From Planctomicrobium piriforme (GTDB lineage: Bacteria; Planctomycetota; Planctomycetia; Pirellulales; UBA1268), in the NCBI GenBank assembly GCA_945869735.1, contig CAMBPQ010000002.1, positions 23,276-87,275 on the forward strand: 64,000 nucleotides of DNA, read 5' to 3'. A program made the position numbers and the translations under genes. Below the pieces are notes generated by a model. It worked only from the letters and a program-made list of their open reading frames with translations. It was not told the DNA's origin and ran no database searches. Positions 39,930 to 53,507 of the stretch are shown one piece after another (within the stretch, counting starts at the first letter, position 1; each line of letters starts with the position of its first letter).

Positions 39930-41045
39930 GTGACCACGATCCGCGTTCATTTGCCCGGCACCGCCGCGGCCTCAGATCTCGCGAACGACCGCTCGTATGA
40001 CATCGTCTGCGGCGGCGGAACACTCCGTTCGATCGGTGGGCTGGTTCGCGATGCCGGGGGCCGGCGCGCGGTCGTTGTCAGCGACGCGGCGGTGGTCACG
40101 ACCCATGCAGCCCAGGTCCTCGCCTCGCTCGTAACCGCCGGTGTCGACGCCGCCCTTCTCGAGGTGCCGTCCGGAGAAGCGTCAAAATCGATCGATGCCG
40201 CGGGCTGCCTCTGGAACGAGTTCGCCCGGCAGGCCGTCGATCGCGACACCCACGTCGTCGCCGTGGGTGGTGGCGTGGTCGGAGACCTCGCCGGGTTTGT
40301 GGCTGCCACGTTCGCCCGCGGTCTATCCGTCTGGCAGGTGCCGACCACGCTCGTGGCCCAAGTCGACAGCGCCATCGGCGGGAAAACAGGGATCAATCTC
40401 GAATCGGGCAAAAATCTAGTGGGGGTGTTCTGGCAGCCCCGTGGGGTTGTCGCCGACATCGACACGCTGGCAACGCTGCCGCCACGGGAGTTTATCAGCG
40501 GGCTTGCCGAGGTGGTGAAGTACGGAATGATCATCGATGCCGCGTTTTTCGCCTGGCTCGAGGAGCATGCGGCGGCCATATTGGCTCGGGAATCAGCCGC
40601 CCTCACGCATGCTGTTGAGCGGTCGGCCGCCATCAAAGCCGACGTCGTCGGACGCGACGAGCGGGAAATATCGGGGCTGCGGGCCGCGCTCAACTACGGC
40701 CACACCTTTGCGCACGCCTACGAGACGGCGGCTGGGTTTGGCACGCTCCTGCATGGTGAAGCGGTGGCCATCGGCATGGCACGGGCCGCCCGTCTTGCGG
40801 AACGGCTGGGCAGGCTCTCGCACGACGTCGTAGCCCGTCAGGACGCGTTGCTCCGCCTGCTTCAGCTCCCCGTCGCGCCGCCCGCGGGCCTCCACGACGC
40901 CGCACCGCTGATCGCGATCATGGGCCGAGACAAGAAGACGGTGGGCGGGAAACTGAGGTTCGTGCTTCCCAGCCGGATCGGGCACGTAGAACTCGTGGAC
41001 GGCGTGCCGGACGACGTCGTCCACGCCGTTCTACAGCAGGCGTAG
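39930..41045 (+). CDS. aroB: 3-dehydroquinate synthase
   Basis: GGGVVGDLAGF, PTTLVAQVDSAIGGKTGIN, EVVKYG, LNYGHTFAH, HGEAVAIG. Confidence 0.96.
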   Translation: MTTIRVHLPGTAAASDLANDRSYDIVCGGGTLRSIGGLVRDAGGRRAVVVSDAAVVTTHAAQVLASLVTAGVDAALLEVPSGEASKSIDAAGCLWNEFARQAVDRDTHVVAVGGGVVGDLAGFVAATFARGLSVWQVPTTLVAQVDSAIGGKTGINLESGKNLVGVFWQPRGVVADIDTLATLPPREFISGLAEVVKYGMIIDAAFFAWLEEHAAAILARESAALTHAVERSAAIKADVVGRDEREISGLRAALNYGHTFAHAYETAAGFGTLLHGEAVAIGMARAARLAERLGRLSHDVVARQDALLRLLQLPVAPPAGLHDAAPLIAIMGRDKKTVGGKLRFVLPSRIGHVELVDGVPDDVVHAVLQQA

Positions 41046-41160
41046 AGCGGGTCTGGCTGACGTGGAGCGTTGGTTCGGGGGCGGCAAAAGTCTCGTCGCT
41101 CTATCGCCGCGGCGGCCCGACGCTCCTCGAGCGTTCGCCGACCCCCTCGCCTCCCTCAAC
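41043..41160 (+). mobile_element. Module A copy 6, left end coincides with the aroB TAG stop
   Basis: TAGAGCG, 11 nt, CGTGG...GGTTCGGGGGCGGCAAAAGTCTCGTCGC...CTCCTCGAGCGTTCGCCGACCCCC; right end not recognisable. Confidence 0.75.
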
Positions 41161-41193
41161 CGGTTTCCCCTCCCCGACGCGAGTGGTTGAGCG

Positions 41194-41267
41194 GACCAGG
41201 GGGTGGAGCGATTCGCTCCACCCCCTGGTCGCCAGAGACCAGGCGCTGGAGCGATTCGCTCCAGCGC
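41194..41267. repeat. Two palindromes sharing the core GGAGCG-ATT-CGCTCC
   Basis: 41194-41230: 17-bp perfect arms around ATT; 41243-41267: 11-bp perfect arms around ATT. Confidence 0.85.
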
Positions 41268-41535
41268 GCCCCGGGCGGTCGCTGCCGCCGCCTCCATTGG
41301 TTTCCCGAACGAGCAGGGAAAAAAGCTTTTTTTCAAGCACATTTCTCCACCACCCCCTTTTTTTGACGTGCCGTGCCGCGAGTTGGCATGGCACGTGCAT
41401 GTCTTCCAGAGATGTGGGGGTGGCCCAACTAGATCTCCGACCTCGCAGATGTGCGTGGGCGGCGGAACTGACGGACCGCCTCTCGACATTCGTTGCTTTC
41501 CGTCGGCTACTGGTGACGTTGCAAGGAGTTCGCTC

Positions 41536-50630: not shown

Positions 50631-50643
50631 GGGAGCGGTGCGG

Positions 50644-51585
50644 TCATTTGCCGCGCAGGGTCTGTGACGGCGTCTCGCCGAACTGCCGGCGGTAGAGGCC
50701 GGCAAAGCGACCCAGTTCACAGACCCCGTGGCGGGTGAGAACCCGGGCGACGGTGTCGCGGACGGGATCTCCGTCGCGGAGCGACCGGCGCACCGCGTAA
50801 AGGGCCTGCAGCCGGACGAACTGCCGCGGCGCGATGCCATATGTGTCATGAAACACCCGCGTCAGCGTGCGCGGATGGACGCCCGCGGCGGATGCGAGGT
50901 CGGCGATCGACCGATGGGCAGATGGATCGCCTTCGAGGACCGCGACGACACGCCGCACCACGTCCGTGCGGTCAACCCTGGGCCGACCTAGGAGGGCCTT
51001 ACCCGATTCCCGTGGGCCGACGCACGATATGGCGGCCCTCATCACGCGGTCCGCCACCTCCGTCTCTGCGACCGCTGACGCCTCGTCGAGCGTTGCTGCT
51101 CGCGTCACGTGCTCCACAAGTTGCTTGAGACGCCGGACATGCAGCGGATCCGCCCGCAGGACATGGCTCGTCGTGTCGCGAGCGACGAAAGAGTTTTCCG
51201 GCAGGGCGATCGAGCACCATGCGTGCGACCGCTTCTTGACTTGGATGCAGAACTCGCTGCCTGGCGGGATGACCAACAGGGATCGATCGTTGAGTACCTC
51301 TCCGTTGACGACATGCTGATGCGGATCGCCGAGCGGCATGTAGATGAGCGTACCGTTGTGCGTGTTGCCGCCGAAGCAGAGGTTGCCGCCCCCCTCAAAC
51401 GCCATCTGCAGCACCAAGGGCCCCACCTGCCGCACTGTCAGCTGCCAGACCGGCGTCTCGACACCATCGCACGCGAGCCGCAGATTGGCCCCCTGGACAG
51501 CTTCACCCCAGGCATCGAAATCGTCGAACGTTTTCTGCATATGGATAGATTTCCGCGTCCCGCAGCCCCCGCGGCAATGGGCCAT
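50644..51585 (-). CDS. AraC family transcriptional regulator
   Basis: C-terminal double HTH (IADLASAAGVHPRTLTRVF; HGVCELGRFAGLYRRQFGETPSQTL); divergent from the sulfatase. Confidence 0.9.
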   Translation of the reverse strand: MAHCRGGCGTRKSIHMQKTFDDFDAWGEAVQGANLRLACDGVETPVWQLTVRQVGPLVLQMAFEGGGNLCFGGNTHNGTLIYMPLGDPHQHVVNGEVLNDRSLLVIPPGSEFCIQVKKRSHAWCSIALPENSFVARDTTSHVLRADPLHVRRLKQLVEHVTRAATLDEASAVAETEVADRVMRAAISCVGPRESGKALLGRPRVDRTDVVRRVVAVLEGDPSAHRSIADLASAAGVHPRTLTRVFHDTYGIAPRQFVRLQALYAVRRSLRDGDPVRDTVARVLTRHGVCELGRFAGLYRRQFGETPSQTLRGK

Positions 51586-51726
51586 CTTTTTGGCCGAATG
51601 TGCATTGCTGAAAAAACGCCGACCACCTGGAATGCAGGATTCTAATTACGATTGAGTTGGGTTATTTTCAAGAGGCGGGTTCGTTCGGCCGTCTCACGAT
51701 CTCGGTGCCACCCTTTGGAGTTCATG

Positions 51727-53276
51727 GCGTGAATCGTCTCCGCATCGCGTTGATCCTTGTTGTTCTGACCGCTTCGGCGACGATCGTTCCGGAGGCTCTC
51801 GCTCAGCCCGGAAAACAGCCTAACATTCTCGTCATCTGGGGCGATGACATCGGCCAGTTCAACGTGGGTGCGTACAACCATGGCATGATGGGCTACAAGA
51901 CGCCTCACATCGACCGCATTGCCCGTGAGGGGGCGCTCTTCACCGACTGGTATGGCCAGCAGAGCTGCACCGCGGGTCGCGCGGCGTTCATCACCGGCCA
52001 GTCGCCAATCCGCACGGGGCTCACGAAGGTCGGCCTCCCCGGCGCCCCTGAGGGCATGAAGAAGGAAGACCCGACGATCGCCACGCTCCTGCGGGCACGG
52101 GGCTACATGACCGGTCAGTTCGGGAAGAACCATCTCGGTGACCGCGACGACATGCTGCCGACAGCCCACGGTTTCGACGAGTTTTACGGCAACCTCTACC
52201 ACCTCAACGCCGAGGAGGAGCCAGAGCATCCCGACTACCCAAAGAACGCCGACTTTAAGCAGAAGTTCGGTCCCCGCGGCGTGATGCACTCCTTCGCTAA
52301 CGGAAAGATCACCGACACCGGTCCGCTCACGAAAAAGCGGATGGAGACGATCGACGAGGAAGTCAACGAGAAGACGTTCGACTTCATGTCGCGGGCCCGG
52401 CAGGCCGACAAGCCGTTCTTCGTCTGGTGGAACTCCACCAAGATGCACATCTTCACACATCTGAAGGAGGGCGTGGCAGGGAAGACCGGCTTGGGCATCT
52501 ATGCCGACGGCATGGTCGAGCACGACCGGCAGATCGGTCAGGTGCTCGCCAAGCTCGAGGAACTTGGGCTCGCTGAGAACACGATCGTGATGTACTCGAC
52601 CGATAACGGCGCCGAGGCCTTCACCTGGCCTGACGGTGGCACGACGATGTTTCGCGGCGAGAAGAACACGCAATGGGAGGGGGGCTACCGGGTGCCGTGT
52701 GCGATCCGCTGGCCCGGCGTCATCAAGCCCGGCACGGTGATCAATGACGTCGGCGCCCACGAGGACATGCTGACCACCCTCGTCGCCGCGGCCGGAGACA
52801 CGACCGCCAAGAACGACCTCAAGAAGGGCCGCCGCATCGGCACCCAGACCTACAAGGTGCATCTCGACGGCTACGATCTCGGGCCCGCGCTCAAGGGAGA
52901 GGCTGAGTGGCCCCGGAAGGAGTTCATCTATTGGACCGATGACGGCAGCGTGGCGGCCCTCCGCTACGGCAACTGGAAGGCGACATTTCTCAAGCAGACG
53001 GCGCACGGCATGCACGTTTGGCAGCAGCCGTTCGAGGAACTGCGGGCGCCTACGCTCGTCAACCTGCGGATGGACCCCTTTGAGCTCGCCCAAGACATCG
53101 GCATGGATTACCAGCGCTGGTACCTGGAGCACATGTTCATGATCGCCCCGGCAGGGGCCTACGTGGGCCAGTGGCTGCAGAGCTTCCGGGAGTTTCCGCC
53201 GCGGCAGAAGCCGGGTAGTTTCAATCTTGATCGTGTCATGGAAGCGGTCACCGCCAGCCAGGGCTCCAGTCGGTAG
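51727..53276 (+). CDS. Exported arylsulfatase (S1, formylglycine-dependent)
   Basis: WGDDIG, SCTAGR (CxAxR), GKNHLG, TDNG, GEK...WEGGYRVP; start approximate. Confidence 0.93.
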
Positions 53277-53507
53277 AGCACCGGTGCACCGTGGGACTCC
53301 GGGTCGCAGCTGAAACGGTGCCGGATTGGTTCGCCGGGGGTGGCATGCTCGGCTCCTCACGATCGGGAGGTTTCAGCATCTGGAGGATGCTGCCCGGCAG
53401 CCAAGTGACACCTCGGCTGTCGCTTCGGCTGCCTCAGCCGGCAACGGCCACGAGGGCGTTGCAGGCGTGAAGTCAGCATCCCGGCTTCTGCGCGTGCCAC
53501 CCCCGGG
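53274..53507 (+). mobile_element. Rearranged module B copy with an A-type left end at the sulfatase TAG stop
   Basis: TAGAGCA, 9 nt, CGTGG; GTGCCGGATTGGTTCGCCGGGGGTGGCATGC; CCCGGCTTCTGCGCGTGCCACCCCCGG. Confidence 0.7.

Follow-up and report, generated by a model that had tools for sequence, protein, structure and literature searches.

The closest described relatives of the repeat reported here, which we call family A, are the insertion sequence (IS) IS630 of Shigella sonnei and its family. IS630 is said, from work by Tenzen and Ohtsubo around 1990, to prefer CTAG and to use TA as its target. Family A came to attention in a 64,000-nt stretch of a planctomycete draft genome (the window, C2:23276-87275), in which two copies begin exactly on the stop codons of aroB and of the transaldolase gene tal, and its sequence characterizes it as a putative non-autonomous derivative, that is, a miniature inverted-repeat transposable element (MITE), of an IS630-family IS. 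The partner IS that we found in related genomes is like IS630 and its family in the CTAG target with TA at both flanks, in the length of around 1.0 kb, and in a transposase with HTH_Tnp_IS630 and DDE_3 domains read from two frames across a run of As. Unlike IS630, family A itself is a 161-bp non-coding unit, and autonomous copies occur in other species of the genus.

Three groups of small repeats invite comparison. RUP of the pneumococcus is a 107-bp, AT-rich MITE that is mobilised by IS630-Spn1, inserts at TA, carries stop codons in every reading frame and reportedly favours IS elements; no association with stop codons is described (PMC2229807). Family A resembles RUP in its small size, in terminal repeats that match an IS630-family IS and in its apparent insertion at TA, but differs in having a GC-rich core that is conserved across species. 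The pneumococcal BOX element encodes the stop at the extreme 3' end of 36 coding sequences, and truncation of these genes lacked strong support (Croucher et al. 2011, PMC3049150). BOX shares this outward phenomenon with family A, in that the repeat supplies the stop codon and the genes are not truncated; however, BOX is modular (boxA, boxB and boxC) and its mobiliser is uncertain, whereas an explicit mechanism (a TA target plus a terminal G) can be proposed for family A. The Correia element of Neisseria (CREE/NEMIS) and ERIC are, like family A, abundant and hairpin-forming, Correia is flanked by TA, and ERIC shows a similarly unexplained conservation across species, although the sequences of both are unrelated to that of family A. 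Both are co-transcribed with neighbouring genes; to our knowledge, their partner transposases are not known and no CTAG preference has been shown for them. Landing on stops is unremarkable behaviour for an already known transposon family, and what we describe is a new family with its mechanism spelled out, not a new mechanism. We consider it very probable that family A is an IS630-type MITE with YTAR (Y, pyrimidine; R, purine) as its target, that the target TA and the first G of the element rebuild the stop codon, and that copies are tolerated where their placement is harmless.

The draft genome consists of 3.17 Mb in 128 contigs, with a G+C content of 66.7%. A codon-usage model trained on long open reading frames (ORFs) gave 2410 genes, which cover 84% of the genome and whose called stops are TGA (1661), TAG (470) and TAA (233). 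Iterated nhmmer searches gave 265 genome hits to family A, which merged to 263 elements, and a position weight matrix (PWM) of the element end, at a threshold of at least 14 bits, recognized 392 family-A ends in the genome and seven in the reversed sequence. The consensus of the 263–265 copies reads CTAG-AGCGCATTCGAC...GGCAGATGCGCT-CTAG, with imperfect terminal inverted repeats of around 27 nt; seven copies are in the window. We scored an end as lying at a stop if the triplet outside AGCGCAT serves as the stop codon of a gene that runs into the element. This exact coincidence holds for 78 of the 392 ends (67 at TAG, 10 at TAA and one at TGA), and 72 of the 263 elements have such an end. In the histogram of end-to-stop distances no offset other than zero holds more than seven ends, and the neighbouring registers are almost empty, with 1, 2 and 1 ends at offsets -1, +1 and +2, respectively. 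With about nine degenerate copies included, around 16% of the genome's amber stops are borne by elements.

The sites that family A occupies establish its target as YTAR, best CTAG, wherever insertion is tolerated. At neutral ends, the dinucleotide at the flank is preceded by C in 70% and by T in 27% of cases; in Planctomycetota metagenome-assembled genomes (MAGs) other than the window's genome, the preceding base is C at 44 and T at 10 of 64 ends. In those MAGs, with the PWM cut-off lowered to 12 bits, less-diverged copies gave 17 pairs of ends, eight with CTAG and 11 with TA at both flanks. Stop codons show the same preference: occupancy is 37% for C-TAG (48 of 129) and 8 of 30 for T-TAG, compared with 3% for G-TAG (8 of 244) and 3 of 67 for A-TAG. 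CTAG occurs 819 times in the genome, against 9791 expected from base composition (12-fold depletion) and 2564 from a Markov model (3-fold). Across the genome, CGAG and CTCG exceed expectation 1.75-fold. Of the empty YTAR sites, 744 are intergenic, 167 lie at stops and 1125 fall within coding sequence. A null model in which any tolerated TA is equal places 24.3 elements at stops, far from the 72 observed (p = 2e-17), whereas a YTAR null model places 47.7, compared with 61 observed; the YTAR preference and selection against gene disruption thus explain nearly all of the enrichment at stops. The first-pass annotation had proposed that hits at stop codons exceed chance, which the genome-wide count bears out, and that the element targets TA in amber stops. 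The latter holds in that the TA of the stop is used and the G of the element completes TAG, but the true target is YTAR, and TAA is also hit.

Under the mechanism that we propose, family A would integrate at the TA of YTAR, best CTAG, with duplication of TA, as IS630 does. The terminal repeat starts with G, and each end would then read inward as TA plus G, that is, TAG. On insertion into a stop codon, TA would come from the old stop and G from the element, and the old third base would be shifted to the far end; TAA stops would be hit likewise and become TAG. Because TAR in frame always constitutes a stop codon, the only harmless YTAR sites in gene space would be TAG and TAA stops with a C or T before them, at which the protein remains unchanged. 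Owing to the rarity of CTAG in a 67% GC genome, such stops make up about one-fifth of all tolerated targets, and they are filled about as often as intergenic targets. A YTAR target and an initial G would in this way rebuild TAG and leave the gene intact, so that many copies begin exactly on stops. Selection would then preserve TAG at stop ends, and TA at neutral ends would decay to GA or TC.

The parentage of family A was examined by searching the genus relatives (20 genomes, given as G-numbers) for IS630-type DDE_3 domains. An intact IS of around 1.0 kb was found in G012, G007 and G002. In the first two, the IS scores 16–22 bits at both ends on the family-A end PWM and is flanked by CTAG on both sides; the terminal repeats of the IS and family A align as CTAGAGCGC(A/G)TC..GTG.AGCG. 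The coding part consists of an HTH_Tnp_IS630 frame, a run of eight As and a DDE_3 frame, and the ORFs of one locus (L016) match PF01710 with 22.3 bits (cut-off 21.3) and PF13358 with 116.5 bits. The IS of G012 adjoins the TAG stop of a convergent ORF. An IS630-type partner is present in seven of the 20 genomes, and in the window's own genome only as remnants on C26 and C5; the degraded IS at C26:1005-1824 has a MITE-type right end and carries, within its transposase gene, an insertion of a second repeat, family B. The intact IS, with its matching terminal repeats and IS630 transposase, argues that family A is an IS630-derived MITE. A parent in the IS5 family (IS427/IS1031 group), considered on account of repeats starting with GAG, was rejected, as three PF13586 (DDE_Tnp_1_2) loci in the genus lack family-A terminal repeats. 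Family A is also carried by many MAGs labelled Pirellulales or Planctomycetia.

The window contains the three sites at which elements had been annotated as starting at TAG stops: GCG TAG AGCGGG (41043) at aroB, GCG TAG AGCGCATT (50472) at tal and CGG TAG AGCACC (53274) at a sulfatase gene (Table 1). This was upheld by nhmmer and the PWM for aroB and tal, whose stops are both of the rare G-TAG type. The aroB stop consists of the target TA and the first G of a family-A copy, and the tal stop coincides with the right end of a copy in the opposite orientation, the distal end of which has decayed from TCTAG to TCTCGG. It did not stand for the sulfatase gene, where the stop scores -23.8 bits against the PWM, so that no family-A end is recognized, and where the repeat belongs to family B, with homology beginning around 20–37 nt 3' of the TAG (about 53293–53311). 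The sulfatase CGG TAG is ancestral: it is kept in the orthologues of G015, G001 and G012, all without the repeat, and the spacer that follows the sulfatase gene is just 16 nt in G015. The possibility that this site is a decayed family-A end was rejected on the PWM score, a gapped resemblance of 64% and the better alignment of the family-B leader, and its TAGAGC is best explained by chance. The hexamer TAGAGC, read in the first-pass annotation as the terminal repeat, has to be replaced by a putative TA duplication followed by a terminal repeat beginning GAGCGCAT.

Several points weigh against the reading of family A as an IS630-type MITE that rebuilds stops at YTAR. The gene set comes from our own codon-model caller. 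No empty site was recovered: over 38 kb of the window, the Logan contigs of eight lake and sediment metagenomes break at the repeats, with none passing over an element, and we infer the TA duplication from the flank statistics and from knowledge of the IS630 family. For two of the at-stop genes, on contigs C17 and C13, orthologues of identical length end in TGA, and a TAR stop in their lineage before insertion has to be inferred. YTAR sites are occupied more often at stops (26.8%) than in intergenic regions (19.5%; odds ratio 1.5, p = 0.02); we read this residual excess as weak, because part of the "intergenic" space must consist of promoters or genes missed by the caller, which would not tolerate insertion. 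Furthermore, TA is kept at just 21% of neutral ends in the window's genome, where the triplets are GAG (76), TCG (62) and CAG (25); these changes are mostly T>G and more skewed than in the element interior, which has to be accounted for by further assuming either hypermutability of CTAG or selection against it.

Variation at the left flank is independent of that at the right. TA retention climbs with similarity to the consensus, from 0.16 to 0.34, and it is high in less-diverged copies of other genomes, which argues for decay and not for alternative targets. T>G is the commonest change within the element too (0.080, compared with 0.055 for T>C), and the loss of TA, which is faster than at interior A/T sites, suggests pressure against CTAG. 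The change of TA to GA or TC at neutral MITE ends would thus be a built-in record of CTAG loss. The idea that the GA-flanked ends arose when copies entered TGA stops lying one base upstream was rejected, since that register contains no gene stops.

Could the coincidence of ends with stops be a product of the ORF caller in GC-rich DNA, or of random TAGAGC hexamers at stops? The sulfatase gene is best explained in the second way, and it is not alone: among the 400 TAG stops at which the PWM (10 bits or more) calls no family-A end, 17 continue as TAGAGC, of which about nine are degenerate family-A copies and the remaining eight compare with around seven expected from composition. For family A, however, this explanation is already refuted, and we give it practically no credence: only about 0.15 ends would be expected at offset zero under random placement, compared with 78, and the genes concerned have a median length of 379 amino acids, with strong Pfam domains in five of eight sampled, several of which extend to the last residues. 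The coincidence is also replicated in 80 loci from the other Planctomycetota MAGs, in which 37 of 56 ends (PWM cut-off 14 bits) have TAG and 15 lie at the stops of coding ORFs. Another explanation is that the element creates new stops, that is, that insertions into C-terminal coding sequence truncate genes and the TAG of the end is a novel stop, as any in-frame TA followed by the G of the element gives TAG. One truncation is likely, at a convergent gene pair (C82:501-660) whose distal flank is CTAT, so that the plus-strand gene previously read TAT (Tyr) and was then cut short. Where one end of an element is at a stop (38 elements), the displaced third base is C or T in three, but it is A (18) or G (17) in 35, pointing to a pre-existing TAR stop. 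Moreover, in the sampled at-stop genes the Pfam matches extend through to the C-terminus, and all four genes compared (aroB, tal and the genes on C17 and C13) end at the orthologous codon, in agreement with the earlier proposal that the insertions are coding-neutral. In aroB, the orthologues of G014, G015, G004 and G007 have TAG at the same position and no element, whereas that of G009 (L003) has a TAA stop followed by a family-A copy in the orientation opposite to that in the window, which its sequence indicates to be an independent insertion on the same stop. Orthologues of tal that match it in length have TAA (G014 and G015) or TGA as their stop, none with an element. About half of the insertions seem to have turned ochre into amber and very few seem to have shortened a gene, and we regard the creation of new stops as a highly improbable general explanation. 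In three cases, an element reaches from one stop to the other of a convergent gene pair, as would be expected where two TAR stops shared their TA.

A different question is whether the copies at stops have become useful. In either orientation, the consensus is predicted to form a long hairpin (-75 and -83 kcal/mol; z = -3.7 and -3.4), which covers the whole 161 nt and pairs the stop codon in the basal stem. Core columns 29–60 and 82–112 are 95–100% conserved in about 200 copies, compared with 75–90% for the terminal repeats; even when nearest-neighbour copies are compared, the core shows one-third of the difference seen in the arms, and the exact core 25-mer GCTCCTCGAGCGTTCGCCGACCCCC is found in more than 100 stretches from many Planctomycetota MAGs. 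REP elements near stop codons slow translation termination in E. coli. The fold, the conserved core and the 1.5-fold excess of occupancy at stops over intergenic YTAR sites would all suit a domesticated 3'-end module, in which copies at stops are kept or favoured for a hairpin that serves mRNA 3'-end stability, processing or termination, or slows translation termination. However, the orientation relative to the gene is random, the ratio of left to right ends being 49:33 at stops compared with 220:152 overall, and conservation is no higher in at-stop copies than elsewhere (core and arms diverge to the same extent in both groups, 4.3% in at-stop compared with 4.9% in other copies; p = 0.62). The consensus end ...GATGCGCTCTAG has no T-run and is therefore not a canonical terminator, and an excess of 1.5-fold would arise anyway if some of the intergenic DNA (promoters, genes missed by the caller) is intolerant of insertion. 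We hold such a 3'-end module to be improbable. It is likewise unlikely, if marginally less so, that the core is a functional RNA or DNA module, spread by the IS630 MITE and kept by selection, and that a hairpin burying the stop tunes termination or 3'-end stability at around 80 genes; if it were, amber usage would have been shifted, around 16% being element-borne and roughly half of that formerly ochre. No Rfam family reached the gathering score anywhere in the window. Two other tests were set aside: hairpin covariation as independent evidence (134 compensated cells compared with 84 in shuffled data), because it is concentrated in the apical stem and resembles subfamily structure, and private-variant counts as a test of selection on the core, because the measure saturates at variable sites. 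The window sequence is also found in lake-water and freshwater-sediment metagenomes, which marks its source as an uncultured planctomycete of fresh water; in metatranscriptomes of the same studies, aroB, tal and the sulfatase gene are hardly covered.

The IS630-type MITE with a YTAR target provides a clean and quantified example of how a target rule and the first base of an element may together make insertion into stop codons harmless. In this GC-rich genome, in which CTAG is rare, about one-quarter of the copies lie exactly on gene ends, and about one-sixth of the amber stops are partly transposon, which matters for the interpretation of stop-codon usage in Planctomycetota. Annotation is affected too, as repeat maskers and gene callers will disagree on these three bases. 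A natural set is provided by the roughly 80 genes with a stop codon at the foot of a predicted strong hairpin. The features of the window are listed in Table 1.

Table 1. Family-A copies, the three genes with TAG stops and the adjoining family-B-like repeat in the window
Feature	Position	Strand	Remarks
Full-length family-A copy	2342-2514	+	Flanks TAG/TCG, off stops; nhmmer E 7e-54; PWM 33.7 and 36.2 bits
Family-A copy, diverged	8037-8201	-	nhmmer E 5.4e-18
Family-A copy, partial	11364-11494	-	nhmmer E 1.2e-26
Full-length family-A copy	15163-15337	-	Flanks TAG/TCA; nhmmer E 3e-46; 17 nt from the stop of a minus-strand gene
Family-A copy with nested family-B unit (38728-39005)	38600-39050	+	nhmmer 38600-38749; repeat families D5-D7; sequence reading
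aroB (3-dehydroquinate synthase)	39930-41045	+	Pfam DHQ_synthase and DHQS_C; stop TAG 41043-41045
Family-A copy at aroB	41043-41170	+	Left end on stop; around 40 nt of right arm missing; nhmmer 41041-41170, model positions 11-139, E 2.4e-28; end PWM 16.8 bits
tal (transaldolase)	49329-50474	+	Pfam TAL_FSA; stop TAG 50472-50474 common to gene and element
Family-A copy at tal	50470-50632	-	Right end on tal stop; orientation opposite to aroB copy; nhmmer 50632-50470, model positions 11-174, E 2.1e-41; end PWM 15.4 bits
Sulfatase gene	51657-53276	+	Pfam Sulfatase; stop TAG 53274-53276, ancestral
Family-B-like repeat	53277-53507	+	Fills the entire 231-nt spacer between two convergent genes

Family B looks like a second, recently active element. 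Its unit of around 207–230 nt forms tandem arrays and nests in family A, and about 140 cores are present genome-wide; in the window it occupies 38728-39005, 53293-53507 and 62138-62515. A "leader" (GGTCCTTCGGGGAACTTTGTGGGCGTGGGGTTGCCCATGCAGTGCGCC...) is carried by 29 near-identical copies, which have A/T-rich runs on their 5' side, some of them right after a terminator-like hairpin and T-run, and many of which are situated at contig ends. Run X26 contains transcripts of family B.

Twin hairpins, GGTGGAGCGATTCGCTCCACC and GCTGGAGCGATTCGCTCCAGC, are located 3' of aroB (41190-41265) and are kept in eight or more species of the genus. Their position is a little upstream of a highly expressed stretch of the plus strand (41424-43437), for which a single RNA contig spans exactly these 2.0 kb in two metatranscriptome runs, with depths of 77 and 16, neighbouring genes near 0 and adapter letters at both contig ends. 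The stretch has a lower G+C content (0.56–0.64), with T strongly exceeding A, and contains no Rfam match and no convincing Pfam gene. It could be an unassigned mRNA with high expression or a long non-coding RNA.

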